This document shows, piece after piece, positions 1 to 25,212 of a stretch of 64,000 nucleotides of DNA. A program made the position numbers and the translations under genes. Position 1 is the first letter of the stretch; each line of letters begins with the position of its first letter. Under the pieces are notes generated by a model, which ran no database searches, was not told where the DNA came from, and was given only the letters and a program-made list of their open reading frames with translations. Origin of the DNA: Myxococcota bacterium (GTDB lineage: Bacteria > Myxococcota_A > UBA9160 > UBA6930); NCBI GenBank assembly GCA_965223415.1, contig OZ245002.1:5504001-5568000 (forward strand), in the 5' to 3' direction.

Positions 1-497
1 GATGGTTCGTCGGCGAGGAGCGCATAGGGCAGCCCGGTGCGATGCTCTGGATCGTCCACGCACACGTGCAGCTTGCTCGCGAGCACCACGCGCTCGTCCT
101 CGAGCCCCTCGATGATCCAGAGCTCCCAGAGCGGGCGGCCCGGGTCGAGCGGCGTGGCCGCGATGCGGCCGATGAGGCGCTTCAGCTGGCGCTCGCTCCC
201 GGGGCGGGGAAGCCGGACGTGTCGAACGTGATAGTCGAGGTCCACGTCTTCCGCGTCCACCCAGATCGGCTGGGTCTCGAGAGGAAGCTCGGCGATCACC
301 TGGCGGTAGCGGTGGAGATCCCCGATTCGCGCCGCGACCCGGTCGCGGATGCGGTTCACCGCGACGCTCCCCGTGTCGTTGCGCAGACCGGCGGCGGGAA
401 AGCGCTGCACCCGCAGCACGTGGAGCGGGGCGTCCGGGTGCTCGAGCTTGAGGAAGCCCTGCTCTCTCGCGGTCAGGTGCTCGTAGTCCGCGTGCAT
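1..497 (-). CDS. WS/DGAT (wax ester/triacylglycerol synthase) family O-acyltransferase-like protein, N-terminal part (runs off the window)
   Basis: Not in ORF track. Manual translation from ATG 497: MHADYEHLTAREQGFLKLEHPDAPLHV...PIWVDAEDVDLDYHVRHVRLPRPGSERQL...PLDPGRPLWELWIIEGLE, typical WS/DGAT N-terminus; GGAGG upstream. Confidence 0.85.
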   Translation of the reverse strand, partial: MHADYEHLTAREQGFLKLEHPDAPLHVLRVQRFPAAGLRNDTGSVAVNRIRDRVAARIGDLHRYRQVIAELPLETQPIWVDAEDVDLDYHVRHVRLPRPGSERQLKRLIGRIAATPLDPGRPLWELWIIEGLEDERVVLASKLHVCVDDPEHRTGLPYALLADEP

Positions 498-532
498 CCG
501 CCTTCCACCTCCAACCCGGACGCTACGGTGGG

Positions 533-548
533 AGCAAGACGCATGCCG
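533..548 (-). promoter_or_regulatory. sigma54 -24/-12 promoter motif
   Basis: Minus strand CGGCATGCGTCTTGCT (GG-N10-GC) upstream of the WS/DGAT-like gene. Confidence 0.7.
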
Positions 549-670
549 CGAGGAAGTCGCACCGGCCGCGGCAGATCCACGCCGATGGCCCTTGCTGCCC
601 CCGGCCCCTTCGCCGTGCCCCATCCTGCCCCCTGACGCGATGCCGCAGCGTGTCGTGCGCCCGCCCGATC

Positions 671-686
671 CGGCACGCCGCTTGCG
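671..686 (+). promoter_or_regulatory. sigma54 -24/-12 promoter motif
   Basis: CGGCACGCCGCTTGCG upstream of ATG 728. Confidence 0.75.
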
Positions 687-727
687 TTCCCCACGGCCGA
701 AACTCGGCAGCTTCCACGGGAGGGATC

Positions 728-1735
728 ATGCGTTTCGGACGGTCGAGCTGGCTCGGATGGGGATTGGCCACGGCTCTGGGCCTGGCCATGGGAGGAGGCG
801 TGGCCAGCGCCTCGGCACAGGAAGGGGGGTCCTGCGACGGCTTCCTTCCGGACTTCACCTGCGATCGGTCCGGCCGCTGGGAGGGCTTCCACCGTCCCAT
901 CGTGTCGTTCCCGTTGTTCGAGGACCCGTTCATCACGACGGGGATCTATCCCTACTACGCGTTCCACGAGTTCCCGGATCGCTCGGCCTTGCAGGGCGGC
1001 GAGGCCCACGACGTGTCGGTGCAGGCGCGCATCGCGCTCACCGACCGGCTGGCGTTCATCGCCACCAAGGACGGCTACGTCTGGAAGCGGCCTGACAACC
1101 CGCTCCTCGACGATACGGAGGGCACCCTGAACCTGGCCGGCGGCCTGAAGTACGCCCTCGTCCAGGACGAGGAGGCCGGCTACATCGTGTCCGGCGTGCT
1201 GCGCGTGGAGTTCGACACGGGCAGCTCGGACACCTTCCAGGGCTGGGGCGACGGCATGGTGCTGCCCTCGGTCACCGGCGCCTGGGGGAGCGGCCCGCTC
1301 CACATCATGGCCGACATCGGGGCCCAGATCCCCTTCGACGGCGATGACCAGAGCACGTCGCTCTTCTACCACCTGTATGCCGACTACAACGTGACCCCGA
1401 ACTTCGCGCCCTTCGTGCAGCTGAGCGGCCTCACCTGGATCAGCTCGGGCAACGGCGAGATCCCGGTCAAGCTGAAGCGCGGCATCGTGCCCGGCAGCGA
1501 GCTGCCGCTCGACCTGGTGCAGACCGTGCTCGGCACGGGCGCCTTCGAGGGTGCGGACCTGATGAATCTGGGCTCGCGGAACGTCGACGGTCTCGACCTC
1601 TGGACCTGGGCGATCGGTGCTCACATCCCGCTCACCGACCACATCACGTTCAGCGTCGGCTACGAGCGCCCCTTCAGTCACCACAAGGGGATCTTCAAGC
1701 AGCGGGTGACGAGCGGGCTGACGATCGAGTTCTGA
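728..1735 (+). CDS. Secreted, probable outer-membrane beta-barrel protein
   Basis: Signal peptide (MRFGRSSW...ASA-QE), alternating amphipathic strands, aromatic-rich, C-terminal Phe (GLTIEF). Confidence 0.65.
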   Translation: MRFGRSSWLGWGLATALGLAMGGGVASASAQEGGSCDGFLPDFTCDRSGRWEGFHRPIVSFPLFEDPFITTGIYPYYAFHEFPDRSALQGGEAHDVSVQARIALTDRLAFIATKDGYVWKRPDNPLLDDTEGTLNLAGGLKYALVQDEEAGYIVSGVLRVEFDTGSSDTFQGWGDGMVLPSVTGAWGSGPLHIMADIGAQIPFDGDDQSTSLFYHLYADYNVTPNFAPFVQLSGLTWISSGNGEIPVKLKRGIVPGSELPLDLVQTVLGTGAFEGADLMNLGSRNVDGLDLWTWAIGAHIPLTDHITFSVGYERPFSHHKGIFKQRVTSGLTIEF

Positions 1736-1840: not shown

Positions 1841-2287
1841 CTAGGCCACCACCGGCCCCGGCCCCTCGTAGCGCTCGCGCAGGATGGCGGCCAGCACGCG
1901 GCAGACGTCGGTGAGGGTGAGGATGCCCGCCAGGCGGTCGTCCTTGGCGACGAGGGCGGTGCCGATCCTTCGCTCGGCCAGCACGTCGAGGACGTCCGCC
2001 AGGGATGCGTCGAGGGAGGCCACGTAGGGATCGGGGGTCATCACCTGCTCGGCGTGGATGCGCTCCCAGCCGTCGGTGGGGAGCGCCGGGTTCACCAGCC
2101 GATCGACGTCGCGCCGGCTGATGACGCCGACCAGCGCGCCGTCGCGCTTCACGGGCACGTGGCGGACGCCGTGGTCGTCCATGAGGCGGCGGACGCGGCC
2201 CAGGGAATCCCCGGCCTCGGCGAAGTAGGGAAACGGCGTCATGACGGCCGCCAACGTGGGCATCCGGTCGTGATCGCGAAGGTGCAT
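1841..2287 (-). CDS. CBS-pair domain protein
   Basis: VMTPFP...RHVPV...LVGVISRRD; VMTPDP...LAGILTLTD. Confidence 0.9.
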   Translation of the reverse strand: MHLRDHDRMPTLAAVMTPFPYFAEAGDSLGRVRRLMDDHGVRHVPVKRDGALVGVISRRDVDRLVNPALPTDGWERIHAEQVMTPDPYVASLDASLADVLDVLAERRIGTALVAKDDRLAGILTLTDVCRVLAAILRERYEGPGPVVA

Positions 2288-2319: not shown

Positions 2320-2335
2320 AGCAAGCAGCGTGCCG
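2320..2335 (-). promoter_or_regulatory. sigma54 -24/-12 promoter motif
   Basis: Minus strand CGGCACGCTGCTTGCT upstream of the CBS gene at 2287. Confidence 0.75.
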
Positions 2336-2438: not shown

Positions 2439-2454
2439 TGGCACGGATCCTGCG
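2439..2454 (+). promoter_or_regulatory. sigma54 -24/-12 promoter motif
   Basis: TGGCACGGATCCTGCG upstream of the USP gene. Confidence 0.7.
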
Positions 2455-2468: not shown

Positions 2469-2915
2469 ATGAAGCTCGACCACATCCTCGTGCCCTTCGA
2501 CTTCTCGGCCTGTGCCGGGCGCGCCTTCGACCAGGCCCTCGAACTGGCGGGCCGCTACGGAGGCCGCCTCACCCTGCTCCATGCCTTCCAGCTGAACGAG
2601 CAGGTCTATCCCTACTCGGCAATCCTGACCCACGAGCGGGTGGAGGACGCACGGGAGGCGGCCACCCGGGCCCTGGCCGAGTGGCGCGACCGGGCGGACG
2701 CAGGCGGGGTCGAGGTGGACGTCCGCGTGGCCCCCGGCATGCCCTCGGAGACGATCGTCGCCGTCGCCCAGGAGATCGCCGCGGACCTGATCGTGATGGG
2801 CACCCATGGCCGCACGGGCCTGGGCCACGTGATGCTCGGCAGCGTCGCCGAGCGCACCCTGCGCGCTGCGCCCTGCCCGGTTCTCACGGTGCGGCCGCCG
2901 GACGAGGCCTCGTGA
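2469..2915 (+). CDS. Universal stress protein (single USP domain)
   Basis: ILVPFDFS...ADLIVMGTHGRTGLGHVMLGSVAERTLRAAPCPVLTV. Confidence 0.95.
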   Translation: MKLDHILVPFDFSACAGRAFDQALELAGRYGGRLTLLHAFQLNEQVYPYSAILTHERVEDAREAATRALAEWRDRADAGGVEVDVRVAPGMPSETIVAVAQEIAADLIVMGTHGRTGLGHVMLGSVAERTLRAAPCPVLTVRPPDEAS

Positions 2916-3367
2916 CGGGCGCGACCCTGCCCGACGACCTCGTTGATCGGCTCGTGCGCCGCAACGTGGTGACCGTCTCCCCGGACGCGGTGATCGGCTC
3001 GGTGATCGAGGTGATGCGCCTGGGCCGGCTGCGGGCGCTGCCGGTCGTCGACAAGGGAGAACGGTTGCTGGGCGCCCTGGCCTTCGTCGATTGCTGCGAT
3101 CTCGTCGCCAAGGCCCTGTCGGGCGACGATTCGGATCGGGAGGTCCTGGAGCGGCTCGAGGCCGCCCTGAACGTCCCGGTGCACGTGGTGATGACGCCCG
3201 CCGATCAGCTGGTCGAGGGCGAGGCCAACCTGCGCTCGGCCGTGCGCCAGCTCGGTGACGCGCGCTGGGGGCACCTGTGCGTCGTCCGCAGCACGTCCGA
3301 AGGCCCGCGGCTGCTCGGCCTGCTGACGGAGAACGACGTCCTTCGTCACCTCGTGATCGACGCCTGA
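2912..3367 (+). CDS. CBS-pair domain protein
   Basis: GTG start overlapping the USP stop (GTGA); LPVVD...LLGAL; VMTPA...LLGLLTENDVL. Confidence 0.85.
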   Translation: MTGATLPDDLVDRLVRRNVVTVSPDAVIGSVIEVMRLGRLRALPVVDKGERLLGALAFVDCCDLVAKALSGDDSDREVLERLEAALNVPVHVVMTPADQLVEGEANLRSAVRQLGDARWGHLCVVRSTSEGPRLLGLLTENDVLRHLVIDA

Positions 3368-3792
3368 GCGGGCGAGTCCCCGTAGGCCCCGCGCAGCAGG
3401 TCCGTCTCCGTGACCAGGCCCACCATGTGGTCGCCGTCGTCCACCACCGGCAGGCAGCCGATCCGGTGGGCGAGCATGAGCCGGGCCGCCTCCCGCAGGG
3501 TGGCCTCCGGCGCCACCGTGATGGGCTGGGCGGTCATCACCTCCTGCACGACGACGGAGCGCATGAAGTTCCGCCGCTGGTCGCCCTCGAAGGCCAGGGC
3601 CCTCGAGAGGGAGGCCGCGAGCAGGTCCCGCTGGGAGACGACGCCGATCAGCTGCTCGCCGTCGAGGACCGGCATGTGGCGGATGCGGCCGAGCTGCATG
3701 ACGTCGTCGACGAAGTCGAGCTGGTCCTTGGCCTTCACGGAGACGAAGTCGCTGGCCATGACCGAAGAGACCTGACGTTCGGCGGGATGCAT
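3346..3792 (-). CDS. CBS-pair domain protein
   Basis: MHPAERQVSSVMASD...RHMPVLDGEQLIGVVSQRD...IGCLPVVD...VGLVTETD. Confidence 0.92.
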   Translation of the reverse strand: MHPAERQVSSVMASDFVSVKAKDQLDFVDDVMQLGRIRHMPVLDGEQLIGVVSQRDLLAASLSRALAFEGDQRRNFMRSVVVQEVMTAQPITVAPEATLREAARLMLAHRIGCLPVVDDGDHMVGLVTETDLLRGAYGDSPAQASITR

Positions 3793-3819: not shown

Positions 3820-3835
3820 AGCAACGGTCGTGCCA
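3820..3835 (-). promoter_or_regulatory. sigma54 -24/-12 promoter motif
   Basis: Minus strand TGGCACGACCGTTGCT, full match to TGGCAC-N5-TTGC. Confidence 0.85.
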
Positions 3836-3873: not shown

Positions 3874-3890
3874 TGGGGCGCTCCACCCCA
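3874..3890. promoter_or_regulatory. Palindromic candidate enhancer/operator TGGGG-N7-CCCCA
   Basis: TGGGGCGCTCCACCCCA about 40 bp upstream of a sigma54 motif; recurs at 7501, 15505, 25196. Confidence 0.5.
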
Positions 3891-3898: not shown

Positions 3899-5125
3899 TC
3901 ATCCTGCGACCCTGCGCCAGACTTCGAGCCCGATCAAGACGACGCTCGCGAGGCCACCGACCACCGGGATCCAGCGGGGACAGTGGAAGATCTCGCCGGC
4001 GGGCGGTCGGCGCCTGTGGAGCACCCACAGGGAGGCGTGCATGAGCCCGAAGACGGTCAAGGCCAGGAGGGCCGTCACCCGGGCCAGCCCGGCCAGGGGG
4101 AAGGCCACCGCCAGCACCCAGACGACGGCCGCCACCGCCCAGGTCGCCACCCAGGGCGTGCCGGTCCGCGGCGAGACCCGCCCCAGCGGCGCCGGCAGGA
4201 GCTGCCGCTGGGCGAGCCCGTAGAGCACCCGGGAGGCCATGACCACCTGGATCAGGGCGCCGTTCACCATGGCCAGCACGCCGATCACCACCAGCTCCAC
4301 CGGCTCCCGGCCCACCGCGCGCTCGAAGACCAGGGCGAGGGGCGCGTCGGAGGCGGCCAGCTCCGCCGGCGCCACCCGCGCCACGGCGGCGAAGGCAACG
4401 GCCACGTAGAGCAGGCTCGTCAGGCCGAGCGTCCACAGGATCGCGCGGGGAAGCGCGCGACGGACCTGCTTCACCTCTTCGGCGACGTTGACCATGTCCT
4501 CGAAGCCCAGGAACGCGTAGAAGGCCAGGGTCGCCGCGTTGACGATGCCGGCGATCGGAATGGCTCCGCCGCCGACCCACGCCGCCTCGGGTGCCGCGGG
4601 CGCCTCCGCCACGCTCACCGCGGTGACCACGGCGATGAGCCCGCCCACCTCGAGCAACGTGATCACGGCGGCCACCAGCAGCGACTCCTTCACTCCCCAG
4701 GCCGCGATCGCCCCCAGCGCGAGGGTGAGGCCGCTGATCGCCACGATGGGGGCCGTGGGGACGAGAGCGCTCCAGTAGCCGGCGAAGCCGTTCGCGACAG
4801 CGGCGGCCGAGACGACGCCGGCCAGCACCACCGCCATGCCCACCGCCCACGCCAGCCACGGCGAGGCGAAGGCCTGGCGGACGTACTCGGCCTCGCCGGC
4901 GGCGCGCGGATGGCGGGAGGAGAGCTCGGCGAAGGCCAGCGCCGTGGCTCCGGCCAGGAGCGACGCCAGGCCGAAGGCAGCCGGCGCCCAGGCCCCGGCC
5001 AGGCCGGCCACCTCGCCCACCAGCGCGTAGACGCCGGCGCCCACGGTGGTGCCGAGCCCGTACAGGACGAGCAGCGGAAACGAGACCCGCCGCCGCAGCG
5101 CCGCCTGCGGTGCCGCGCCGGACAT
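3899..5125 (-). CDS. APC-family amino acid permease
   Basis: GLGTTVGAGVY (TM1), FYAFLGFE (TM6), about 12 TM segments. Confidence 0.9.
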   Translation of the reverse strand: MSGAAPQAALRRRVSFPLLVLYGLGTTVGAGVYALVGEVAGLAGAWAPAAFGLASLLAGATALAFAELSSRHPRAAGEAEYVRQAFASPWLAWAVGMAVVLAGVVSAAAVANGFAGYWSALVPTAPIVAISGLTLALGAIAAWGVKESLLVAAVITLLEVGGLIAVVTAVSVAEAPAAPEAAWVGGGAIPIAGIVNAATLAFYAFLGFEDMVNVAEEVKQVRRALPRAILWTLGLTSLLYVAVAFAAVARVAPAELAASDAPLALVFERAVGREPVELVVIGVLAMVNGALIQVVMASRVLYGLAQRQLLPAPLGRVSPRTGTPWVATWAVAAVVWVLAVAFPLAGLARVTALLALTVFGLMHASLWVLHRRRPPAGEIFHCPRWIPVVGGLASVVLIGLEVWRRVAG

Positions 5126-5135: not shown

Positions 5136-6019
5136 TCAGCCGGCCTTCGGGCGAACCGTCCAGACCGGGCAGGGAGCGCCGCGCAGGGTGCGCTCGGCGA
5201 CGCTGCCCAGGACCATGTGCTTGAGGCCGGTGAGGCCCCGGGAGCCGGTGACGACCAGGTCGGCCTCGTGGTCCGCCGCCGCGTCGATCAGGGCGAAGGA
5301 CGGGGGGGCGCTGCGCACCTCGGTCTTCACCGACATGATGTCGGTGATCCCCTGGGCCATCTCCTCGAGCTTGGACGTCGCCTCGGCGTGGGCCCGCTCG
5401 ATCACGTTGTCGGGCACCGACACCTCGTAGGGCGTGACGAAGGGGATGCGCAGATCGAGCGCATGCACCAGGTGCAGGGCCGCACCGAACTCCTGGGCGA
5501 GGTCGACGGCCGTCTGGAAAGCGGCGGAGGCGCCTTCGGAGAAGTCCACCCCGACGACGATGCGCTTCGGTCCCTCGGAGAGGGCGCCGTCCTTGATCGT
5601 GAGCACCGAGCACGGAGCCAGCTTGACCGTGTGCTCGGCCACGCTGCCCAGCACGACCCGCTTCACGCCCGTCTGGCCGTGGGTTCCGACCACGACGAGA
5701 TCCACGTCGAGCTCGCGCGCGCGATCGGCGACCGCGTAGGCGGCCGGCACCTCGCCCAGGTGGATCGAGCCCTCCAGGCCGGCCTCGCGCCCACGCGCGG
5801 CGGCCTCCTCGAGCTTCTCCTTGGCGGCCGTGCGCGCGGCGCCGAGGGTCGCTTCCGGCACGGCGACCGCGTACGGCTCGAAGATCGGGAGCGGCACCTC
5901 GAGGGCGTGCACCCAATGCAGCTCGGCACCGAAGCGCTTCGCCAGCACGATCGCGGCCGTCTCCGCGGCACTGGCGGCCTCGGAGAAATCGGTGGCGACG
6001 AGCAGCTTGCGGGGACGAC

Positions 6020-6023
<4 letters not shown>
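5136..6023 (-). CDS. Universal stress protein (tandem USP domains)
   Basis: Two repeats of ...DFS...G(T/S)(H/R)G.TG.K..VLGSVAE....APC.V. Confidence 0.95.
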
Positions 6024-7435
<1,412 letters not shown>

Positions 7436-7447: not shown

Positions 7448-7463
7448 AGCACGGGGCGTGCCA
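7448..7463 (-). promoter_or_regulatory. sigma54 -24/-12 promoter motif upstream of the activator gene itself
   Basis: Minus strand TGGCACGCCCCGTGCT. Confidence 0.75.
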
Positions 7464-7500: not shown

Positions 7501-7517
7501 TGGGGCAAAATTCCCCA
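7501..7517. promoter_or_regulatory. Palindromic candidate enhancer/operator TGGGG-N7-CCCCA
   Basis: TGGGGCAAAATTCCCCA about 40 bp upstream of the sigma54 motif. Confidence 0.5.
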
Positions 7518-8842: not shown

Positions 8843-9289
8843 TCAGATCGGCCCGCTGGCCTTCTCGCCCTGCACCGCCCGGCGCAGCGCCTTGAGGATG
8901 TCGCACCGCGCGATCATGCCCACCACCTCGTGGTCGTCGACGACGGGGAAGCTCTTCGTGCGCAGCTCGACCATCCGCTCGAGGGCGCGAGTGAGCGGCA
9001 TGCGCGGTGTCACCGTGGTGACGTCCGTGACCATCACATCGGAAACGGGGCCGGCCATGATCTGCTCGTAGGGGGGCAGCATGGAATCCTGGCTGAAGCG
9101 GAAGGCCTTGAGGATGTCGAGCTGGGTCACGAAGCCCAGGAGACGCCCGTCCGGGCCCAGGACCGGCAAGCCGTTCCAGTTCTTCTCCTCGAGGATCTTC
9201 TCCACCTCGGCCAGGGAAGTCTCGGGGCCGAGACCGACGGGCTCGCGGGTCATCGCGTCGAGGACCCGGTAGTCGAGGAACTCGTACAT
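8843..9289 (-). CDS. CBS-pair domain protein
   Basis: AMTREPV...NGLPVLG...LLGFVTQLD; VMVTD...FPVVD...VVGMIARCD. Confidence 0.92.
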   Translation of the reverse strand: MYEFLDYRVLDAMTREPVGLGPETSLAEVEKILEEKNWNGLPVLGPDGRLLGFVTQLDILKAFRFSQDSMLPPYEQIMAGPVSDVMVTDVTTVTPRMPLTRALERMVELRTKSFPVVDDHEVVGMIARCDILKALRRAVQGEKASGPI

Positions 9290-15504: not shown

Positions 15505-15521
15505 TGGGGCGGAACGTCCCA
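15505..15521. promoter_or_regulatory. Palindromic candidate enhancer/operator (1 mismatch)
   Basis: TGGGGCGGAACGTCCCA about 60 bp upstream of the sigma54 motif at 15581. Confidence 0.45.
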
Positions 15522-15580: not shown

Positions 15581-15596
15581 CGGCATGCCGGTTGCT
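15581..15596 (+). promoter_or_regulatory. sigma54 -24/-12 promoter motif
   Basis: CGGCATGCCGGTTGCT upstream of the HPF-diiron operon. Confidence 0.7.
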
Positions 15597-17618: not shown

Positions 17619-17881
17619 GTCTCGACGAACCCCGCCAGCGGTTCGACCTCGACGATCGGGGCTTCGACGAGGTGCCCCGCAAGTACCGCAAGTACTACCG
17701 GCGCTGGGAGGGGCCCGACGACGAGCTCGGCCCCAACGAGATCCTGTGCCCGGTCTGCAAGATCGTGGTCCGATCCAATCGCGAGCTGCGCCCGGGCGAT
17801 CGGATGTACTGTATGGCGTGTCTGACGAGGCTGCGGATCACCGAGGCCGAGGGCCGATTGGAGGCCGAGGTCGAGTACTGA
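17615..17881 (+). CDS. Small 4-Cys metal-binding protein (zinc ribbon/rubredoxin-like), 88 aa
   Basis: CPVC-x17-CMAC; ATGA overlap with protein B. Confidence 0.8.
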   Translation: MSLDEPRQRFDLDDRGFDEVPRKYRKYYRRWEGPDDELGPNEILCPVCKIVVRSNRELRPGDRMYCMACLTRLRITEAEGRLEAEVEY

Positions 17882-18330
17882 TGCGCACCTCCTGGACATG
17901 GGAGCCCCGAGACACCATGGACCAGCCCGGTGCGCACAAGCGGATGAGCCTCGAAGCCCGGCGCATCTCCTCCCAGCACCGCAAGCTCAACATGCTCCAC
18001 CGCGTGGTGGTCGACGCCATCAACCGCGCCCGCCCCGCCGAGTGCATCACCGCCTTCAAGCGCTTCCGGGAGGCCCTCGACTCCCACTTCTCCCTGGAGG
18101 ACGAACTCTACTTCCCGGCCCTCCACGGCCTGCGCCGCGACCTGTCCGCCACCCTCGAACGGCTGAGCCAGGAGCACGCCGCCCTGCGAAGCCGCCTGGC
18201 GGAGCTGGAGGCGGCGTTCGTCGAGGCCCGGCTGGACGAGTGCGCGCGGCTCCTCGATACCGTGGGCGCGGCGATCGCCGACCACGAGAGCCGGGAAGAG
18301 CAGGTGCTGCGGGCGTTCCGCGATTCCTAG
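17881..18330 (+). CDS. Hemerythrin-like (HHE) domain protein
   Basis: QHRKL, HFSLEDELYFPAL, QEH, HESREE; start at 17881 (TGATG overlap) or 17917. Confidence 0.85.
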   Translation: MRTSWTWEPRDTMDQPGAHKRMSLEARRISSQHRKLNMLHRVVVDAINRARPAECITAFKRFREALDSHFSLEDELYFPALHGLRRDLSATLERLSQEHAALRSRLAELEAAFVEARLDECARLLDTVGAAIADHESREEQVLRAFRDS

Positions 18331-18523
18331 TCCCGGCCGGTGGGTCGAGATCCGAAAACCCCTCGCTCTCGCGCTCCGGGCAGGCGTCGTCGTCGTAGAC
18401 GTGCCGGAACGAAGGCCCCTCCCAGTCCTCGAACTGGCCCTCCCGGGCCGCCCGGAGCACCAGGGCCAGGAGCAGGGCCGCGAGCAGCAGCGAGACCGGC
18501 AGGGTCACGGCGAGGAAGCTCAT
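18056..18523 (-). CDS. ccoS: cbb3-type oxidase assembly protein CcoS/FixS (conserved part about 18380-18523; ORF reads through to 18056)
   Basis: MSFLAVTLPVSLLL...AAREGQFEDWEGPSFRHVYDD directly after ccoI. Confidence 0.8.
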   Translation of the reverse strand: MSFLAVTLPVSLLLAALLLALVLRAAREGQFEDWEGPSFRHVYDDDACPERESEGFSDLDPPAGTRNRGTPAAPALPGSRGRRSPRPRYRGAARTRPAGPRRTPPPAPPGGFAGRRAPGSAVRGWRTGRGAGRGGPGSRVRPPGRSGSRGPPGSA

Positions 18524-20700
18524 GCGTCGGGGCTCCAGCGCAGCAGCCGGATCGCGTTGCCGGTCACCACGAGAGACGACGCGCTCATGGCGATCGCTGC
18601 GTGGAGGGGCTCGAGCCAGCCGGCCACCGCGAGCGGAACGGCCACCAGGTTGTAGAGCAGCGCGAAGCCCAGGTTCTCGCGGATGCGGGCCACGCAGGCC
18701 CGGGCCAGGCCCAGGGTCGTCGGGAGCGCCGTGAGACGAGGCGAGCGGATCACCAGATCGGCCGCGTGGAGGGTGACGTCGGAGCCGCGGTGCATGGCGA
18801 GGCCGACGTCGGCGGCTCCGAGGGCGGCGGCGTCGTTGATGCCGTCGCCGGCCACGAGCACACGGCGGCCGGCCCGTCGCAGGGTGCGCACCTGGGCGAC
18901 CTTCTCCTCCGGCGACTGCTCGGCGTGGACCACCGGCACGCCCGCAGCGGCGGCGGCCAGACGGGCGGCCGTAGGGTGGTCGCCGGTCACGAGGGAGGCG
19001 GCGACGCCCTGGCGCTGCAACGCCTCCACGGCCAGGCCGGCGTCCTCCCGCGGCGGATCCCAGAGAGCGAGCAGGCCCAGAACCTCCTCGTCCCGTGAGA
19101 CGGCGACGAGGCTCAGGCCCGCCGCGGCGGCCTTGTCCGCGGCCTCGCGGAGCGGCGCGGGCAGCGCGGCCCCCGCCTCCTCCAGCCAGCGCGGAGAGCC
19201 CGCGCGCAAGAGCGCATCTCCCGCCCGCGCCTCGACGCCAGCACCGGGCCAGGTGCGCCGCTCCGTGAGCTCGGGCAGCACGGCGTCGGCGGCGGCCTCG
19301 CGCAGGGCCTCGGCCACGGGATGGGTCGAGGCGCCTTCGACGGCGGCGGCCCAGAGCCGGAGCTCCTGCTCGCTCACGCCGGGCGCGGTGTGCAGCTCGC
19401 GCACGGCGAAGCGCCCCTCGGTGAGGGTGCCGGTCTTGTCCAGGGCCACCGCGTCGACCCCGGCGCAGCGCTCCAGCGCCTCGCCGCTCTTCACCAGGAT
19501 GCCGAGGGACGCGGCGCGGCCGACGGCGGCGGTGATCGCCGCGGGCGTGGCGAGACCGAGAGCGCAGGGACAGGCCACGATCAGCACGGCGGCGGTGGCG
19601 AGCGCCACGTCCAGGGGCGCGGCCCCCTTCCACAGCCAGAAGCCGGCGGTGGCGGTGGCGATGGCCAGCACCGCCGGCGCGAAGACCGAGGCCACCCGGT
19701 CCGCCAGCCGTTGGATGCGGGGCCGCTCGGCCTGGGCGCGCTCGAGGAGCGCCGCCATCTTGGCGAGGGTGCCCTCGGCGGGCCGAGCCACGACCTCGAT
19801 CTCCGCTTCCACCAGCAGGTTGCGGCTGCCGCCGATCAGGAGCTCGCCGGGCTCCCGCAGGACCGGGCGCGCCTCGCCCGTGAACGGCGCCTCGTCCACC
19901 TCGGTGGCGCCGGAGCACAGGCGCCCGTCGGCGGGCACGGCCTGGCCGGCGGGGACGAGGACGCGGTCGCCTACCGCGAGACTCGCGGCGTCCACCTCGA
20001 CGGGGCCCTCGGGCGTGCACAGGAGCGCCTTCGGCGGCGCCAGGGCGGCCAGGCGATCGACCGCCGAGCGTGCCTTGCCCCGCGCGCCGCGCTCGAGGGT
20101 GCGGCCGAGGAGCACCAGGAAGACGATCATGGCCGCCGAGTCCATGTAGAGGTGCGACGTGCCGGCGAGAGTACCGGCCACGCCGACCCCGAAGGCGGTC
20201 GTGATGCCGGCGACGATGGGCACGTCGACGGAGAGCTCGCCGCAGCGCAGTCCGCTCCAGGCCCCGCGCCAGAAGGGTGCCGCACACCAGGTGATCGCCG
20301 GCACCGTGAGCACCAGCGTGAGCCAGCGCAGGACCTGGCGCACGGCCGGATCCATGCCCTGGTAGCTGCCGGAGTAGAGAGCGACCGAGAGCCACATCAC
20401 GTTGCCGGCCAGGAAGGCCGCCACCAGCAGGCGCACGAGGGCGGCGCGCTGGCTGCCGGCGGCCGGCCGATCCAGCACCTCCGGGTCGAAGGGGGTCGCG
20501 TCGTAGCCGAGCTCGCGCACCACCCCGACGAGGGCGTCGGCGGAGCTGCGCTCCGGGTCGATGCGCACCAGGGCCCGGTGGCTGGTGTAGTTCACGGCGG
20601 CCTCGTCCACGCCGTCGGCAGCGCGCAGGGCCCGCTCCACCCGGTTCACACAGCCGGCGCAGTGGAGCCCGTCCAGGAAGAGGCCGACGTCCGCGGTCAT
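18520..20700 (-). CDS. ccoI: Cu-translocating P1B-type ATPase CcoI/FixI
   Basis: HMA GLHCAGC, TGE, CPCALGLA, DKTGTLT, HP, GDGIND, YN, MSASS. Confidence 0.93.
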   Translation of the reverse strand: MTADVGLFLDGLHCAGCVNRVERALRAADGVDEAAVNYTSHRALVRIDPERSSADALVGVVRELGYDATPFDPEVLDRPAAGSQRAALVRLLVAAFLAGNVMWLSVALYSGSYQGMDPAVRQVLRWLTLVLTVPAITWCAAPFWRGAWSGLRCGELSVDVPIVAGITTAFGVGVAGTLAGTSHLYMDSAAMIVFLVLLGRTLERGARGKARSAVDRLAALAPPKALLCTPEGPVEVDAASLAVGDRVLVPAGQAVPADGRLCSGATEVDEAPFTGEARPVLREPGELLIGGSRNLLVEAEIEVVARPAEGTLAKMAALLERAQAERPRIQRLADRVASVFAPAVLAIATATAGFWLWKGAAPLDVALATAAVLIVACPCALGLATPAAITAAVGRAASLGILVKSGEALERCAGVDAVALDKTGTLTEGRFAVRELHTAPGVSEQELRLWAAAVEGASTHPVAEALREAAADAVLPELTERRTWPGAGVEARAGDALLRAGSPRWLEEAGAALPAPLREAADKAAAAGLSLVAVSRDEEVLGLLALWDPPREDAGLAVEALQRQGVAASLVTGDHPTAARLAAAAAGVPVVHAEQSPEEKVAQVRTLRRAGRRVLVAGDGINDAAALGAADVGLAMHRGSDVTLHAADLVIRSPRLTALPTTLGLARACVARIRENLGFALLYNLVAVPLAVAGWLEPLHAAIAMSASSLVVTGNAIRLLRWSPDA

Positions 20701-20897
20701 CCCTGCGCCTCCACCTCCCGCGGGTGGAAGCCGCTGCGTCCGCCGTCGGCTTCGAAGGCCTCGTCCACGATGACCGGGTCCGGCGTGCGGTAGGCAACGA
20801 CGGCGAAGCCGATCGACACCAGCATCATCAGGGCGAGCATCGAGGCGAGGATCCAGGGCCAGGGCTCGGTGCGGCGCTCCGTCGGGTCAGCCTGCAT
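20697..20897 (-). CDS. ccoH: Short CcoH/FixH-like membrane protein (66 aa)
   Basis: EPWPW + single TM + PDPVI between ccoG and ccoI, with overlapping start/stop codons. Confidence 0.65.
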   Translation of the reverse strand: MQADPTERRTEPWPWILASMLALMMLVSIGFAVVAYRTPDPVIVDEAFEADGGRSGFHPREVEAQG

Positions 20898-22203
20898 CGC
20901 GGATCTCCGGTGTGAGGAAGTGGGTCGGCCGCACGAGGGGGCGATCGCCCCCCTCGACCGGCTCGAGCACGAAGCGCAGCTCCTTGCGGGTTCCGTCGGG
21001 CTCCCAGCCGAGCGGCGCCATCACGAAGACGCGGGCCTCCACCGCGTCGGTCGGCCCGACGGGGATCGGGTTCTGGCCGGCGATCAGGGCGAAGTCGGTA
21101 CCCGTGGCCTCGACGCGGATCCGGTAGGCGTGCTCGACCCGATCGCGGTTCTCGAGGCGGAGGGTGAAGGCGTTGCCATAGCGCCCGTCCGCGGCGCGAC
21201 CGAACAGGGCCTGGCGGTTGTGCATGACCGTGAAGTCCATCGGCACGCGCACCATGAGCAGCGCGGCAAAGGCCACGCCGGCAGCGACGAGCATGCCGCC
21301 GTAGACGACCACCCGGGGCCGCAGGACCCGGGCCGGCCGGGTGCCCTCGAGGGCCGAGAGCGCGCGGTATCCGATCAGCTCGGGCTCCCGGCCAGTGCGG
21401 GCCATCACCCCGTTGCAGGCGTCGATGCACTGGGTGCAGGTGATGCATTCGAGCTGCAGGCCGTCGCGGATGTCGATCTCGGTGGGGCAGACCTGCACGC
21501 AGAGGCCGCAATCGACACAGTCGCCTGCGACGGTCCCGCGCTTGCCCCGCGGCTCGCCGCGGGCCCGGTCGTAGCTGATGACGAGGGTGTCGCGGTCGAA
21601 CAGCACGCCCTGGAAGCGGGCGTAGGGGCAGAGATAGCGACAGAAGGTCTGCTTCACGACGACGAAGTCGAGGTAGGAGAGGACGGCCATCACCACGAGG
21701 AAGCCGAAGGCGGCGCCGTAGGGGCCGCCGGACTGGAGGCGTTCCAGCAGCTGGTAGGGCGAGGCGAAGTAGGCCACGAGGTGGAAGCCGATCACGAGGG
21801 AGAGTCCCATCCACACGAGGTGGGTGAGCAGGATCCGCCAGGCCGCGACCCGCTCGGGCGGCCGCGGCCCCTTCCAGCCCTGGAGGAAGCGCGCCACCAC
21901 GGCGAAGACATCGGTGAAGACGGTCTGCGGGCAGGCCCAGCCGCACCAGACGCGCCCGAGGAGGGCCGTGAAGAAGAAGAGCGCCAGGGCCAGCGCTGCC
22001 AGGATCAGCCACAGGAAGTAGAGCTCCTGGGGCGCGATCACGAGGCCCAGCACGTGGAACTCGCGGGCCGGGATGTCGAGCTGCACCAGGGGCTCGCCGC
22101 CGATCCGGATCCACGGGATCCCGAACAGGACGGCGATGAGCGCCACGTCGGCCCAGGCGCGCAGCGTACGGAACCGGCCGCTCACCGCGCGAGCGGAGAG
22201 CAC
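20887..22203 (-). CDS. ccoG: Cytochrome c oxidase accessory protein CcoG/FixG
   Basis: GRVWCGWACPQT, FCRYLCPYARFQ, DCVDCGLCVQVCPT, ECITCTQCIDAC. Confidence 0.96.
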   Translation of the reverse strand: MLSARAVSGRFRTLRAWADVALIAVLFGIPWIRIGGEPLVQLDIPAREFHVLGLVIAPQELYFLWLILAALALALFFFTALLGRVWCGWACPQTVFTDVFAVVARFLQGWKGPRPPERVAAWRILLTHLVWMGLSLVIGFHLVAYFASPYQLLERLQSGGPYGAAFGFLVVMAVLSYLDFVVVKQTFCRYLCPYARFQGVLFDRDTLVISYDRARGEPRGKRGTVAGDCVDCGLCVQVCPTEIDIRDGLQLECITCTQCIDACNGVMARTGREPELIGYRALSALEGTRPARVLRPRVVVYGGMLVAAGVAFAALLMVRVPMDFTVMHNRQALFGRAADGRYGNAFTLRLENRDRVEHAYRIRVEATGTDFALIAGQNPIPVGPTDAVEARVFVMAPLGWEPDGTRKELRFVLEPVEGGDRPLVRPTHFLTPEIRDAG

Positions 22204-22206
22204 GCC

Positions 22207-22782
22207 CTACCCCCCTGCGCCCTGCTGGGCCTGGGCCGCGTCGTGCTCCGGCGAGCCCACGCCGGGCTCGTCGGTGCGCTCGAGGGTCTCCATGTAGGCG
22301 AGCACCTTCCAGATCTTCTCGTTGCCGAGCTGGGGGCCCCAGGGCGGCATGCCGAGGGGCCGGCCGGCGTTCACCGTCTCGAAGAGCGCGGCGTCGCTGT
22401 CGCCGTACTTCCAGTAGGGATCGATCACGCTCGGACCCACGAGCCCCCGCCCGTCGGGCAGGTGGCAGGCGACGCAGATCTGGGTCCACACCTCCTGGCC
22501 CTGGGCGATCGCGGCGCTGTCGCCGCGGTACGGATTCGTGTCCGGGAGGGCCTCGCGCACGGAGGCGAAGGCGGCTTCCGCCTCGGCGACCTCGGCCTGC
22601 CAGCGCTCCGCCTGGGAGTGCGGCGCCATGGCGCCGTAGAAGAAGATGTAGCCGAGCCCGTAGAGGATCAGCCCATAGAAGCCCAGGTTGAACCAGGCCG
22701 GGATCGCGTTGTCCTCTTCGCCGATGCCGTCCCGCTCGGGCTCGTCCACCAGCGGCCGCTCGGGAATCTGCTCCGAGCTCAT
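22207..22782 (-). CDS. ccoP: cbb3-type cytochrome c oxidase subunit III (monoheme)
   Basis: DGIGEEDNAIPAWF N-terminus, TM, single CVACH, GMPPWG. Confidence 0.9.
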   Translation of the reverse strand: MSSEQIPERPLVDEPERDGIGEEDNAIPAWFNLGFYGLILYGLGYIFFYGAMAPHSQAERWQAEVAEAEAAFASVREALPDTNPYRGDSAAIAQGQEVWTQICVACHLPDGRGLVGPSVIDPYWKYGDSDAALFETVNAGRPLGMPPWGPQLGNEKIWKVLAYMETLERTDEPGVGSPEHDAAQAQQGAGG

Positions 22783-22931
22783 TCTCCGTCCTCCTCGAGC
22801 ATGCGGTGGGCAGGCGCTTCGAAGCGCGCCCTCTGGCCGGGCCGGAAGAGCCACACGCCGATACCGACCAGAACCAGGGCCAGGAACGCCAGACGGCCCA
22901 GCTTGTAGAGGGCGACCCACTCCTCGCTCAT
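22779..22931 (-). CDS. ccoQ: cbb3-type cytochrome c oxidase subunit IV
   Basis: 50 aa, TM followed by WLFRPGQRARFEAPAHRMLED; between ccoO and ccoP. Confidence 0.85.
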   Translation of the reverse strand: MSEEWVALYKLGRLAFLALVLVGIGVWLFRPGQRARFEAPAHRMLEEDGE

Positions 22932-23611
22932 CGGGCCGCTCCCTTCACCGAGGTCCCCAGGGACTGCAGGTAGGCGATCAGCGCCACGGTCTCGCTGCGG
23001 GCCTGGGCTTCGCTCAGCTCGATGCGATCGCGCCGGAGCTCCGCTGCGATGGCGTCGGCCTGAGCCAGGGCGTCCCGCCCCGCGTTCGCCACCTCGGCGT
23101 CCTCGTAGGGCGCGCCCAGCATGCGGAGCACCTCCAGCTTGCGAGGGAGCGTCGAGGTATCGATCGGTCTCGACGAGAGGAAGGAGAAGCTCGGCATGTT
23201 CGAGCGCGGCTCGATCTTCTGCGGGTCCTCGAAGTGCAGCCAGTGCCAGGAGTGTGGGTAGCGCCCGCCGACCCGCGCCAGGTCCGGCCCCGTGCGGCGG
23301 GAGCCGAACAGGAAGGGCCGGTCGTAGACCGACTCGCCGGCCAGGGAGTACGGCCCGTAGCGGTCGGTCTCGGTCTTGAAGGGCCGCACCTGCTGGCTGT
23401 GGCAGGTGTTGCAGCCCTCGCGCACGTAGATGTCCCGGCCCTCCTGCTCGAGGGCGGTGTAGGGCCGGTGGCCCTCGATCGTCTCCACCGTGCCCTGGAG
23501 GTAGAAGGGAGGGATCAGCAGGACGAGGCCGCCGACCACGATGCACAGCAGGGTGAGCCCGGTCAGGGACAGCCACTTCCGCTCCAGGGGGCGATGCCAC
23601 TCGTACGCCAT
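22928..23611 (-). CDS. ccoO: cbb3-type cytochrome c oxidase subunit II
   Basis: GRDIYVREGCNTCHSQQVRP, GSRRTGPDLARVG, SNMP. Confidence 0.96.
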   Translation of the reverse strand: MAYEWHRPLERKWLSLTGLTLLCIVVGGLVLLIPPFYLQGTVETIEGHRPYTALEQEGRDIYVREGCNTCHSQQVRPFKTETDRYGPYSLAGESVYDRPFLFGSRRTGPDLARVGGRYPHSWHWLHFEDPQKIEPRSNMPSFSFLSSRPIDTSTLPRKLEVLRMLGAPYEDAEVANAGRDALAQADAIAAELRRDRIELSEAQARSETVALIAYLQSLGTSVKGAAR

Positions 23612-23612
23612 C

Positions 23613-25070
23613 TCAGCGCCCTCCCGCCACGGCGGCCGCGGCGCCGGCCGGGGGCGCGTCGGCCTCCGGGACCTCCACCGAGCCCTGCTGGATCGTCTTC
23701 CAGACGTTGTAGACCATCACCAGGGCGCCTCCGAGGAAGAAGACGCCGCCCACCACGCGGATCACGTCGTAGATACGAATGGCAGAGACGGTCTCGATGA
23801 AGGTGTAGGTGAGGCTCCCGTCCGGGTTGACCGCCCGCCACATGAGGCCCTGGGTCACGCCGGACACCCACATCGGCGTCACGTAGAGCACGATGCCGAG
23901 GGTGGCGACCCAGAAGTGCACCTCGGCCAGGCGCTGGCTGTAGAGCTTCGTGTGCCACAGCCGCGGCACCATGTAGTAGAGGGTGGCGAAGCAGGTGAGC
24001 GCCACCCAGCCGAGGGCGCCGGAGTGGACGTGGCCGATCGTCCAGTTGGTGAAGTGGGAGAGCGAGTTCACCGAGCGGAGCGACATCATCGGCCCCTCGA
24101 AGGTGCTCATCCCGTAGAAGGTCAGCCCCACCGCGAACATCTTGAGCAGCGGATCCGTGCGCACCTTGTGCCAGGCGCCGCGGAGGGTGAGCAGCCCGTT
24201 CAGCATCCCGCCCCAGGAGGGGAAGATCAGCATGATCGAGAAGGCGGCACCGAAGGTCTGTGCCCAATCCGGCAGCGGCGAGTAGATCAGGTGATGCGGC
24301 CCGGCCCAGATGTAGATGAAGATCAGCGACCAGAAGTGCAGGATCGAGAGCCGGTGGGAGAAGATCGGCCGCCCCGCCTGCTTCGGCAGGAAGTAGTACA
24401 TGAGGCCCAGGATCGGCGTGGTGAGCAGGAAGCCCACCGCGTTGTGGCCGTACCACCACTGGATGTTCGCATCGTAGACGCCGGAGTAGGCCGAGTAGGA
24501 CTTCATCCACGAGACCGGCCAGGCCATGCTGTTCGTGATGTGCAGCATGGCGATGGTCAGCACCGTCGCGACCCAGAACCAGATGGCCGCGTACATCGCC
24601 TTCTCCCGCCGCTTGGCGAGAGTGCCGAAGACATTGATCGCGTAGACCACCCACACGACGGCGATGGCGATGTCGATGGGCCACTCGAGCTCGGCGTACT
24701 CCTTGGCGGTGGAGTAGCCCCCGAGCAGACTCACGGCGGCGGCGACGATGATGCCGTTCCACAGCCACAGGTTGATCCGCGAGAGCGTGTCGCTGAACAT
24801 CCGCACGCGGCACAGGCGCTGGAGCCCGTAGTAGGTGCCCGCAAAGACCACGCCCAGCGTGAAGCCGAAGATCACCGCGTTCGTATGGACCGGGCGCACG
24901 CGCCCGAAATGCAGGTACGGCCCCCAGTTCCATTCCGGCCAGGCCAGCTGGATCGCAGCCAGCAGTCCCACCAGCATGCCCACCACACCCCACAGCAGCG
25001 CTGACAGGGAAAACCCCCGCACCACCGCCATGTCGTAGAGGACGGGCTCGGCGTTCGTTCGTGTGCTCAC
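23613..25070 (-). CDS. ccoN: cbb3-type cytochrome c oxidase subunit I
   Basis: RPVHTN, KEYAELEW, QWWYGHNAVGF, WAGPHHL, STFEGP, WTIGHVHSGALGW; GTG start 25070. Confidence 0.97.
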   Translation of the reverse strand: MSTRTNAEPVLYDMAVVRGFSLSALLWGVVGMLVGLLAAIQLAWPEWNWGPYLHFGRVRPVHTNAVIFGFTLGVVFAGTYYGLQRLCRVRMFSDTLSRINLWLWNGIIVAAAVSLLGGYSTAKEYAELEWPIDIAIAVVWVVYAINVFGTLAKRREKAMYAAIWFWVATVLTIAMLHITNSMAWPVSWMKSYSAYSGVYDANIQWWYGHNAVGFLLTTPILGLMYYFLPKQAGRPIFSHRLSILHFWSLIFIYIWAGPHHLIYSPLPDWAQTFGAAFSIMLIFPSWGGMLNGLLTLRGAWHKVRTDPLLKMFAVGLTFYGMSTFEGPMMSLRSVNSLSHFTNWTIGHVHSGALGWVALTCFATLYYMVPRLWHTKLYSQRLAEVHFWVATLGIVLYVTPMWVSGVTQGLMWRAVNPDGSLTYTFIETVSAIRIYDVIRVVGGVFFLGGALVMVYNVWKTIQQGSVEVPEADAPPAGAAAAVAGGR

Positions 25071-25109
25071 GCAAAGGCCCCCTTCCGCGCCGGACGTCGT
25101 GCAGGAGAG

Positions 25110-25125
25110 ATGCCAACGCAGGGCG
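25110..25125 (-). promoter_or_regulatory. sigma54 -24/-12 promoter motif for the cco operon
   Basis: Minus strand (T)TGGCATCTCTCCTGCA. Confidence 0.7.
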
Positions 25126-25195
25126 GCATGAAACGGGCTCTCCGCGGGAAGGCGGCCCAATGCCTCCCCAACCCTGGCCTCACATTGGGGCTCGG

Positions 25196-25212
25196 CGCCG
25201 CAGAATCGAGGG
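25196..25212. promoter_or_regulatory. Palindromic candidate enhancer/operator (1 mismatch)
   Basis: TGGGGCTCGGCGCCGCA about 70 bp upstream of the cco sigma54 motif. Confidence 0.35.

Follow-up and report, generated by a model that had tools for sequence, protein, structure and literature searches.

Can the sensor, the regulator, the promoters, and the outputs of an oxygen-response circuit all be read in one stretch of bacterial DNA? This question is raised by the first 25,212 nt of a 64,000-nt stretch (hereafter, the window; positions 5,504,001–5,568,000) of the single-contig 5.83-Mb genome of a Myxococcota bacterium, in which a globin-coupled histidine kinase and an NtrC-type activator of sigma-54 RNA polymerase stand in an island of about 30 genes. 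An earlier note on this DNA had described the island as a self-contained hypoxia and dormancy regulon, functionally parallel to the DosR regulon of mycobacteria, in which a similar toolkit has been wired to unrelated hardware. Our analysis makes it probable, well short of certain, that the island is a sigma-54-dependent regulon controlled by its own two-component pair, with oxygen limitation as its likeliest trigger. Because the G+C content of the window is 70–76%, plain lists of open reading frames were crowded with shadows; genes were called from third-position G+C, start codons were set from the sequence beside each promoter motif, and families were assigned with Pfam and NCBIfam. Nearly all of the gene families named in the earlier note (globin kinase, activator, CBS, universal stress protein [USP], HPF, hemerythrin, and cco) were borne out by these assignments.

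The kinase (7548..8789, minus strand) has the domain order Protoglobin–HisKA–HATPase_c, with scores of 120.6 bits for Protoglobin (PF11563, residues 6–154), 47.6 bits for HisKA, and 98.6 bits for HATPase_c, and it is encoded by the single Protoglobin gene of the genome. Its Tyr39 and His92 align with a Tyr and a His of GsGCS (2W31), HemAT (1OR4), and AfGcHK (5OHE), which we take to be the distal Tyr (B10) and the proximal His (F8) of the heme in those structures. Both residues, together with His208 in the H-box sequence HEIGTP, are invariant across 11 kinase orthologs. The transmitter was nearest to ZraS in the PDB (135 bits) and to AtoS/ZraS in NCBIfam, and ZraS/AtoS kinases pair with NtrC-family regulators. 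The adjacent gene (6020..7435, minus strand) encodes a protein with the domain order receiver (REC)–Sigma54_activat–HTH_8 (PF00072, 109 bits; PF00158, 238.5 bits; PF02954, 35.7 bits). Its translation shows Asp56, the GAFTGA motif, and the Walker A and B motifs, and an NtrC-family regulator gave the highest-scoring match in the PDB (343 bits). No further protein with a HisKA, HATPase_c, or Response_reg domain was found with Pfam among the island genes, to which the search for a relay pair was confined.

Sigma-54 promoter motifs are denser in the island than anywhere else in the genome, which has one copy of rpoN (Sigma54_DBD). When one mismatch was allowed, the pattern TGGCAC-N5-YTGC occurred 16 times in the 64-kb window versus 9.9 expected, a number that was reached in two of 100 shuffles, and 11 of these 16 matches fell within the first 25.2 kb. 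The pattern YGGCAY-N5-NTGC gave 11 matches in positions 1–26,000 (P1–P11), all of which face a ribosome-binding site and a start codon 13–42 nt downstream. Ten are intergenic, and the other, P7 (9606), lies in the final 60 nt of the AAA_33 gene. In the genome as a whole, 152 matches to YGGCAY-N5-YTGC were counted (mean 0.65 per 25 kb), and the eight in the island are the maximum for any 25.3-kb stretch. The −24/−12 motif precedes 11 of the 12 transcription units, or approximately 27 of the 30 genes, in agreement with the earlier note, which had assigned such a motif to nearly every unit. The sole unit lacking it is headed by a GNAT acetyltransferase gene (15484 down to 13072, minus strand), and a same-genus relative has a motif at that place.

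From left to right, P1 (CGGCATGCGTCTTGC, 534..548, minus strand) lies 36 nt before the start of a WS/DGAT acyltransferase gene and is conserved in two relatives (G004 and G005), and P2 (CGGCACGCCGCTTGC, 671..685, plus strand) lies 42 nt before the gene of a 335-aa protein. P3 (CGGCACGCTGCTTGC, 2321..2335, minus strand) and P5 (TGGCACGACCGTTGC, 3821..3835, minus strand) were identified with the pattern search, and P4 (TGGCACGGATCCTGC, 2439..2453, plus strand) stands 15 nt before a USP start. P6 (TGGCACGCCCCGTGC, 7449..7463, minus strand) is 13 nt before the activator start, and from this position we propose that the activator may regulate its own gene. P7 (TGGCACGGCATGTGC, 9606..9620, minus strand), within the 3′ end of the AAA_33 gene, is followed by P8 (TGGCACCGGCCCTGC, 11231..11245, minus strand), 13 nt before a GTG codon, and P9 (TGGCACGCGCCGTGC, 11255..11269, plus strand). 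P8 and P9 stand back to back, one on each strand, with 9 nt between them (11231–11269), and each therefore has the leader and coding start of the other gene as its upstream region; this arrangement is retained in four same-genus relatives. P10 (CGGCATGCCGGTTGC, 15581..15595, plus strand) is 13 nt before an ATG codon, and P11 (TGGCATCTCTCCTGC, 25101..25115, minus strand) precedes ccoN. Across 171 sigma-54 motifs from the window and the relatives' loci, the start codon is located exactly 13 nt past the TGC in 31 cases and 14–17 nt past it in 31 more, and the 13-nt spacing is retained before the activator, AAA_33 kinase, and HPF-like genes in same-genus relatives. Examples of the fixed spacing in the window are 7449–7435, 11231–11215, 15581–15611, and 2439–2471. 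If transcription begins approximately 12 nt past the GC, the leaders would be 0–5 nt long, and these transcripts would be leaderless mRNAs made with sigma-54.

Upstream of several of these promoters there is a dyad, TGGGG-N7-CCCCA, which we propose on reasoned grounds as the candidate binding site of the activator. Exact copies number three in the window versus 0.16 expected (0 of 100 shuffles reached three), and the whole genome contains 10, three of them in the island. With up to one mismatch, the window contains five dyads, which is close to chance (4.7), and only their positions and the exact matches stand out: all five are in the island, and four lie 37, 38, 59, and 70 nt upstream of P6, P5, P10, and P11, respectively. 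These four are TGGGGCAAAATTCCCCA (7501..7517, upstream of P6), with a dyad at the same place in relatives; TGGGGCGCTCCACCCCA (3874..3890, upstream of P5); TGGGGCGGAACGTCCCA, with one mismatch and followed by TGGGGCAC (15505..15521, upstream of P10), conserved in G004 and G003; and TGGGGCTCGGCGCCGCA, with one mismatch (25186..25202, upstream of P11). The fifth, the exact dyad TGGGGCCACGTGCCCCA (11797..11813), is located within the first codons (signal-peptide codons) of the gene of a 388-aa protein. Its arms are retained in G004 and G005, while its centre and the residues encoded between the arms differ, which suggests a constraint at the DNA level approximately 550 bp from P8 and P9.

In the relatives, the promoter of the activator gene is preceded, at a distance of 36–39 or approximately 59 nt, by a dyad of the form TGkGnCA-WWW-TGnCmCA. 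Between −130 and −20 of the 11 island promoters, the half-site TGGGGC shows an 8.8-fold enrichment, a figure in which the intergenic DNA shared by P1/P2 and by P3/P4 is counted twice, and its frequency is 0.82 per island promoter versus 0.12 at the 334 other sigma-54-like matches of the genome. Upstream of the sigma-54 motifs of relatives, TGGGGCA shows an 11-fold enrichment (35 versus 3.2 expected), whereas control hexamers showed 0.6- to 1.2-fold. Two other approaches to the site were discarded. A weight matrix built from 12 dyads upstream of the relatives' activator gene matched just the activator's own site in the island, and it was dropped in favour of the arm pattern because the AT-rich centre dominated its score; de novo k-mer counts on the 11 upstream regions returned GC-rich words of no clear meaning.

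The pair and its promoters are conserved well beyond the source genome. The relatives found in public records are uncultured Myxococcota or 'Deltaproteobacteria' metagenome-assembled genomes, and full-length kinase orthologs (E ≤ 1e-110) were present in 27 of 40 relatives of the same genus, family, or order. The activator gene follows the kinase gene in all 10 family- or order-level relatives examined and in the four same-genus contigs long enough to show it. More broadly, among the 37 Myxococcota kinase orthologs for which 1.7 kb or more of downstream sequence was available, 35 are followed on the same strand by the activator gene at no more than 1.2 kb (the exceptions being L042 and L043). 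Same-genus islands are collinear with the source island; otherwise, the families that recur around the pair do so in shuffled order, and they include the tandem USP, CBS proteins, the 87-aa gene, the AAA_33 kinase, a di-iron trio, the cco cluster, the 335-aa and 388-aa proteins, and WS/DGAT. With promoter conservation scored as a motif no more than 170 nt upstream of the orthologous gene, first genes frequently carried one: the activator (37/39), ccoN (9/12), the CBS gene of the 3346–3792 type (32/47), the HPF-like gene (3/3), the first di-iron gene (8/17), and the 87-aa gene (7/15). In contrast, no motif preceded the internal genes ccoO, ccoP, and ccoG (0/28) or Lon and ClpX (0/8), and random windows contained one in 231 of 11,800 cases (2%). 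Despite the kinship of these genomes, the pattern of motif conservation matches the operon structure read in the window. Clustering in relatives, the absence of which the earlier note had named as grounds for giving up the idea, was thus found, with the pair and its motifs conserved across a Myxococcota order.

The place of the cco cluster varies. In the source genome, a 6.7-kb ccoNOPGHIS operon lies between hemerythrin and lon (window 18344–25283), whereas in four same-genus relatives (L114, L115, L117, and L118) the island abuts lon–clpX and no cco cluster was present in the contigs fetched; in other genera, cco stands beside the pair. The cluster thus appears to move in and out of the island. 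Direct pairs of a Protoglobin kinase and an activator were also found in two further Myxococcota lineages (G052 and G084), with identities of 28% for the kinase and 43% for the activator. On Nitrospira contigs (L061–L063 and L106), four full-length kinase homologs (39–43% identity over residues 9–411) adjoin sigma-54 activator genes; most Nitrospira matches cover the transmitter half alone.

These features can be assembled into a circuit. The N-terminal globin domain of the kinase, with its distal Tyr39 and proximal His92, would contain a heme that binds O2 or another diatomic gas, and binding would set the autophosphorylation of His208. We infer that the phosphoryl group then moves to Asp56 of the adjacent activator, which would assemble on dyads or half-sites of the TGGGGCA type, lying upstream of the promoters by a few helical turns, and spend ATP to open sigma-54 RNA polymerase complexes at the 11 promoters, thereby driving approximately 27 genes. 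Both regulators lie behind such promoters, an arrangement expected to give positive feedback. The predicted outputs would be a high-affinity cbb3 oxidase with its maturation genes; iron proteins that bind or activate O2 (hemerythrins and ferritin-like di-iron proteins); CBS proteins and USPs, which may sense nucleotides; an HPF-like ribosome factor; a WS/DGAT storage-lipid enzyme; and an APH/AAA_33 kinase. Under O2 limitation, this set would combine microaerobic respiration with a metabolic down-shift. High-affinity cbb3 oxidase is elsewhere a low-O2 enzyme. Outside the island, two additional COX1-family genes are present in the genome, in which no cytochrome bd was found; the source organism thus resembles an aerobe equipped with one high-affinity oxidase in addition. 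Because of this extra oxidase and the HPF-like, USP, and WS/DGAT outputs, induction by O2 limitation is favoured, and hypoxia also induces the analogous regulon of M. xanthus (PMC11841059). We regard induction of the island by hypoxia as fairly probable, and the island may also have a role in dormancy.

Several observations weigh against this proposal. The dyad was first spotted by eye upstream of P5 and P6 and was tested only afterwards; its one-mismatch count is at the chance level, and the half-site enrichment is raised by shared intergenic DNA. No TGGGGC occurs within 130 nt of P7, P8, or P9, and P1/P2 and P3/P4 have half-sites only. Because of the kinship of the relatives, the conservation counts are not independent of one another, and the HPF-like match is weak (28.6 bits). 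The genome encodes approximately 22 full sigma-54 activators, and some of the promoters could be served by others among them. A further difficulty is the sign of the response. According to the published description, the O2-bound form is the active one in AfGcHK and in NmpU, the globin kinase of Myxococcus xanthus, and M. xanthus has a second kinase, NmpS, that inverts the signal (PMC6211767). The island contains no inverter, and hypoxia induction would therefore need a sensor of opposite polarity or control by phosphatase activity; either the polarity of the sensor is opposite or the regulon is O2-induced. The latter would leave the same circuit with the opposite sign, in which the O2-bound kinase is active and the island is an oxygen-exposure or oxidative-protection programme. 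It would suit the single histidine kinase and single receiver protein among the approximately 30 island genes, with no sign-inverting hybrid kinase, and the O2-on behaviour of the globin kinases characterised in the sources cited (PMC6211767, PMC11841059), as well as the hemerythrins, the di-iron proteins, and a candidate flavin monooxygenase outside the island, all of which bind or use O2. However, cbb3 oxidases are typically induced at low O2, for example by FixLJ, FNR, and NmpR (PMC11841059), another COX1-family oxidase exists outside the island, and the HPF-like, USP, and WS/DGAT proteins suit growth arrest more than the arrival of oxygen; we consider the opposite sign rather unlikely. The other branch can be given a specific form, in which a deoxy-active kinase, with a polarity opposite to that of all characterised globin-coupled kinases, would be wired directly to the activator without a sign-inverting relay. 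The island would then be a hypoxia programme, a compact and reshuffled low-oxygen hibernation island of an uncultured myxobacterial order that has converged on the DosR outputs (storage lipid, ribosome hibernation, USP, CBS, and the APH/AAA_33 kinase), with the cbb3 oxidase and the di-iron trio in addition, and many of its mRNAs would be leaderless, beginning at the start codon or no more than approximately 3 nt from it. We offer this combination tentatively, as a possible reading that is in its entirety somewhat doubtful.

The number of sigma-54 activators and the uneven distribution of the half-sites also allow for divided control. The pair might govern the dyad-bearing promoters alone (its own operon, one CBS gene, the HPF-like/di-iron operon, and cco), with the rest answering to other activators, for example to starvation or nitrogen signals, which would make the island a general stress cluster rather than one regulon. 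The promoters without a nearby half-site (P7–P9) and the four with half-sites only would fit this reading. Yet no second activator gene was found in the island or adjoining it in the relatives examined, the same families accompany the pair in shuffled order across an order, and the conserved dyad at 11797 could serve P8 and P9 from 550 bp away; divided control therefore appears improbable. It is more improbable still that the heme senses nitric oxide (NO), CO, or the redox state and that the island is a nitrosative or redox stress regulon. The ligand is not fixed by sequence alone, and heme sensors of the DosS/DosT type respond to NO and CO too (PMC11203133), but the distal Tyr and the proximal His match those of O2-binding globin-coupled sensors, the outputs are centred on O2 use (cbb3 and hemerythrin), and no NO-detoxifying gene was seen among the island genes. 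Finally, the window-wide excess of one-mismatch motifs is modest (16 versus 9.9), which might suggest that the motifs are chance matches in GC-rich DNA and that the stress genes have no common control. This is scarcely credible in view of the orientation of all 11 matches before starts, their genome-wide maximum density, the 13-nt spacing to start codons, and the presence of the motif before 37 of 39 activator orthologs against a background of 2%. The preferred reading thus remains a sigma-54 regulon under the globin kinase and its adjacent activator.

In terms of gene content, the island extends slightly beyond the window on the left. The window edge cuts the WS/DGAT gene, of which the N-terminal 165 aa are encoded at 3..497 (minus strand; PF03007, 130 bits). 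The complete protein has 476 aa (L123) and is followed downstream by a second hemerythrin (183 aa). Because these sequences pass the left edge by approximately 1.4 kb, the island spans approximately 26.7 kb rather than 25.2 kb. The 335-aa protein (728..1735, plus strand) has an N-terminal hydrophobic stretch and no Pfam or NCBIfam match; its orthologs (G030, G031, L034, L042–44, and L069) adjoin cco genes in relatives. Next come a CBS-pair protein (1841..2287, minus strand; PF00571, 80 bits), a single-domain USP (2469..2915, plus strand; PF00582, 130 bits) sharing an operon with the fifth of the CBS-pair proteins (2912..3367, plus strand; PF00571, 58.9 bits), and a further CBS-pair protein (3346..3792, minus strand; PF00571, 101 bits). 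The activator operon runs from the activator through a tandem USP (5136..6023, minus strand; PF00582, 193 bits in two stretches) to an amino-acid permease as its last gene (3899..5125, minus strand; PF13520, 123 bits). The sensor operon begins with the 87-aa protein (9303..9566, minus strand), continues with a CBS-pair protein (8843..9289, minus strand; PF00571, 102 bits), and ends with the globin kinase. The 87-aa protein has no Pfam match and belongs to a widespread unnamed family, with orthologs in 15 relatives and atlas clusters of 87–88 aa that have no family. Upstream of it, a 555-aa protein (9550..11217, minus strand) contains a C-terminal AAA_33 P-loop kinase domain according to Pfam; the name of its family is bifunctional aminoglycoside phosphotransferase/ATP-binding protein, and the family includes Actinomycetota clusters.

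To the right of P9 are a CBS-pair protein (11309..11782, plus strand; PF00571, 112 bits) and the 388-aa protein (11779..12945, plus strand), which has no Pfam or NCBIfam match and thus no assigned family, and whose N-terminus resembles a lipoprotein signal (LLGCG) when judged by eye. The unit without a motif (13072..15484) consists of the GNAT acetyltransferase (14912..15484, minus strand) at its head, a cytochrome c (14427..14900, minus strand), and a 451-aa P-loop protein (13072..14427, minus strand). The best NCBIfam match of the GNAT protein, at 89.8 bits (cut-off 460), was to the GNAT part of the mycobacterial protein acetyltransferase Pat. The HPF/YfiA-like protein (S30AE; 15609..15950, plus strand) scored 28.6 bits with PF02482 (cut-off 23.7) and 26.4 bits with TIGR00741, under the cut-off of 40.9. 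It is followed by the di-iron trio, which consists of two ferritin-like paralogs (15947..16831 and 16833..17618, plus strand) and an 88-aa protein (17615..17881, plus strand), and which recurs beside the sensor pair in many relatives. The family matches of the two paralogs were weak (Phenol_Hydrox, MiaE_2, the aldehyde-decarbonylase family Ald_deCOase, and R2lox-like), and the trio may possibly form an O2-activating or O2-scavenging enzyme. A hemerythrin-domain protein (17917..18330, plus strand; PF01814, 56 bits) precedes the operon of the cbb3 oxidase and its maturation proteins, ccoN–ccoO–ccoP–ccoG–fixH–ccoI–ccoS (18344..25070, minus strand). The Pfam matches in this operon were COX1 (398 bits), FixO (282 bits), FixP_N with Cytochrome_CBB3, Fer4_18 with FixG_C, E1-E2_ATPase with HMA, and FixS (43.5 bits), and fixH was slightly below its cut-off (21.8 bits). 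From 25,975 onward there are lon, clpX, clpP, and tig, and then unrelated genes; farther along, the third-position G+C caller placed no gene in 3.7 kb at window positions 32,650–36,330.

The description of the regulon as self-contained holds insofar as a single locus contains the sensor and its regulator together with the promoters and the majority of the outputs. It is too strong overall, because the island passes the left edge of the window, one unit lacks a motif, and three loci elsewhere share the signature, each combining a sigma-54 motif, at least two half-sites, and a gene start. The first, at 4.68 Mb (4,680,962–4,681,852; L124), is a paralog of the first di-iron gene, 70% identical and with its own sigma-54 motif. 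The second, at 1.00 Mb, is a 140-aa gene upstream of a DUF455-like ferritin-like gene, and the third, at 1.57 Mb, is the flavin monooxygenase gene, with the one-mismatch dyad TGGGACGATCGGCCCCA. On the other side, the island contains the genome's only ccoN and the only tblastn-detectable copies of the 87-aa, AAA_33, HPF-like, 335-aa, and 388-aa genes. A second set of tandem-USP and CBS genes close together was seen at genome positions 431,258–434,196, with 26% and 35% identity to the island copies.

One stretch of DNA thus presents a whole circuit, with a sensor, an activator, 11 promoters, a candidate site, and approximately 27 outputs, and the circuit recurs in dozens of uncultured Myxococcota. 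It offers a test bed for how the sign of a globin sensor is set, given the extra inverting kinase of M. xanthus and the lack of one in the island, and for whether a low-oxygen survival kit (USP, CBS, WS/DGAT, HPF-like, and APH/AAA_33) arises independently in distant phyla under unrelated regulators. The roles under O2 stress of the 87-aa protein, of the presumably exported 335-aa and 388-aa proteins, and of the two ferritin-like proteins with their 88-aa partner, could be addressed in the same setting.

Among known systems, adjacent genes for a kinase and a sigma-54 activator are also found in ZraS/ZraR and AtoS/AtoC, and the island transmitter is nearest to ZraS/AtoS and the regulator to NtrC/AtoC. 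The ZraS/AtoS sensors are periplasmic or PAS-based, answer to metals or acetoacetate, and have no heme globin. In the FixL–FixJ–FixK system of rhizobia, a heme sensor kinase switches on the cbb3 genes (fixNOQP and fixGHIS) at low O2. However, FixL senses through a PAS-bound heme, the regulators are FixJ, of the NarL/FixJ type, and the FNR-like FixK, and fixNOQP has no direct sigma-54 dependence, whereas the island combines a globin with sigma-54. AfGcHK of Anaeromyxobacter sp. Fw109-5 (PDB 5OHE) shares with the island kinase the order globin–HisKA–HATPase_c and the heme Tyr and His, but the similarity over the globin domain is low (50 bits). The partner of AfGcHK is described as a protein of two receiver domains, a homolog of NmpT (PMC6211767), and unlike the island's partner it is not of the NtrC type.

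The parallel with the DosR regulon concerns outputs. The DosR sensors DosS and DosT are GAF-heme proteins and the regulator is of the NarL type, whereas the island has a globin sensor and a REC–AAA+–HTH_8 regulator. DosR acts with sigma-70-type promoters, and to our knowledge its regulon contains no cbb3 oxidase. We take its member Rv0079 to be of the S30AE type and Rv2004c to consist of APH and AAA_33 kinase domains. The members given in PMC11203133 include tgs1, Rv2004c, Rv2626c (a CBS pair), the translation inhibitor Rv0079, and USPs. Matching Pfam families occur in the island (WS/DGAT, USP, the CBS pair, S30AE/HPF-like, and, as a putative counterpart of Rv2004c, APH with AAA_33), in line with the overlap that the earlier note had pointed to, and the control parts are unrelated. 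The likeness thus appears to be one of output families, in a different phylum, and not of descent of the control parts. The authors of the Nmp work likened its USPs to those of the M. tuberculosis dormancy regulon (PMC11841059), and the parallel is extended here beyond the USPs.

The closest known system is NmpRSTU of M. xanthus, in the same phylum. Its relay comprises the protoglobin kinase NmpU, the hybrid kinase NmpS, the NtrC-like NmpR, and NmpT, a phosphate sink; NmpU phosphorylates NmpS and NmpT, and NmpS phosphorylates NmpR (PMC6211767). The NmpR box, GCGCA-N5-TGCGC, is described in pairs upstream of the sigma-54 sites, and the regulon has seven promoters with 23 genes, including those of a CBS protein and a USP, a P-type ATPase gene with a cbb3 oxidase, hemN–hemerythrin, and the nmp genes themselves, with a 6.5-fold NmpR-dependent induction under hypoxia in sealed tubes (PMC11841059). 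The wiring is therefore not without precedent, as NmpRSTU already joins a globin kinase to an NtrC-like sigma-54 activator under hypoxia (PMC11841059). Like Nmp, the island has a protoglobin kinase, an NtrC-like regulator at sigma-54 promoters, and apparent autoregulation, and like the NmpR regulon, its outputs include CBS proteins, USPs, a P-type ATPase with cbb3, and hemerythrin. Unlike in the NmpR regulon, hemN was not seen among the island genes. Because the M. xanthus work already ties these components to hypoxia, little is new in principle; the island is best viewed as a compact, clustered counterpart of the oxygen-limitation regulon shown there, and the interpretation in the earlier note is supported in part.

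The differences lie in architecture and scope. The NmpR box, with up to one mismatch, occurs eight times in the window versus 12.5 expected, and the three occurrences in the island (2852, 5448, and 13951) are not upstream of promoters; it was rejected as the island activator's site because it is not enriched, and TGGGG-N7-CCCCA is the candidate instead. In a phylum sample of 81 genomes (80 relatives and the source genome) examined for an Nmp-type locus, the globin match chosen for follow-up came from a genome of 9.4 Mb and proved to be a protein of 1110 aa encoded in a cluster of another kind. Full-text literature searches found no paper on a direct globin-kinase/NtrC pair with a clustered regulon. 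The globin domain of the island kinase is distant from that of the NmpU homolog AfGcHK. Whereas Nmp is a four-protein relay serving seven promoters scattered over the genome, the island has the globin kinase gene directly before the activator gene, with no other kinase or receiver gene, and 11 promoters within 26 kb; its output is also wider, with WS/DGAT, the HPF-like protein, the APH/AAA_33 kinase, and the di-iron proteins. What is new relative to Nmp is the direct two-gene pair, the different candidate site, the tight clustering, and the added outputs, several of which are unknowns.

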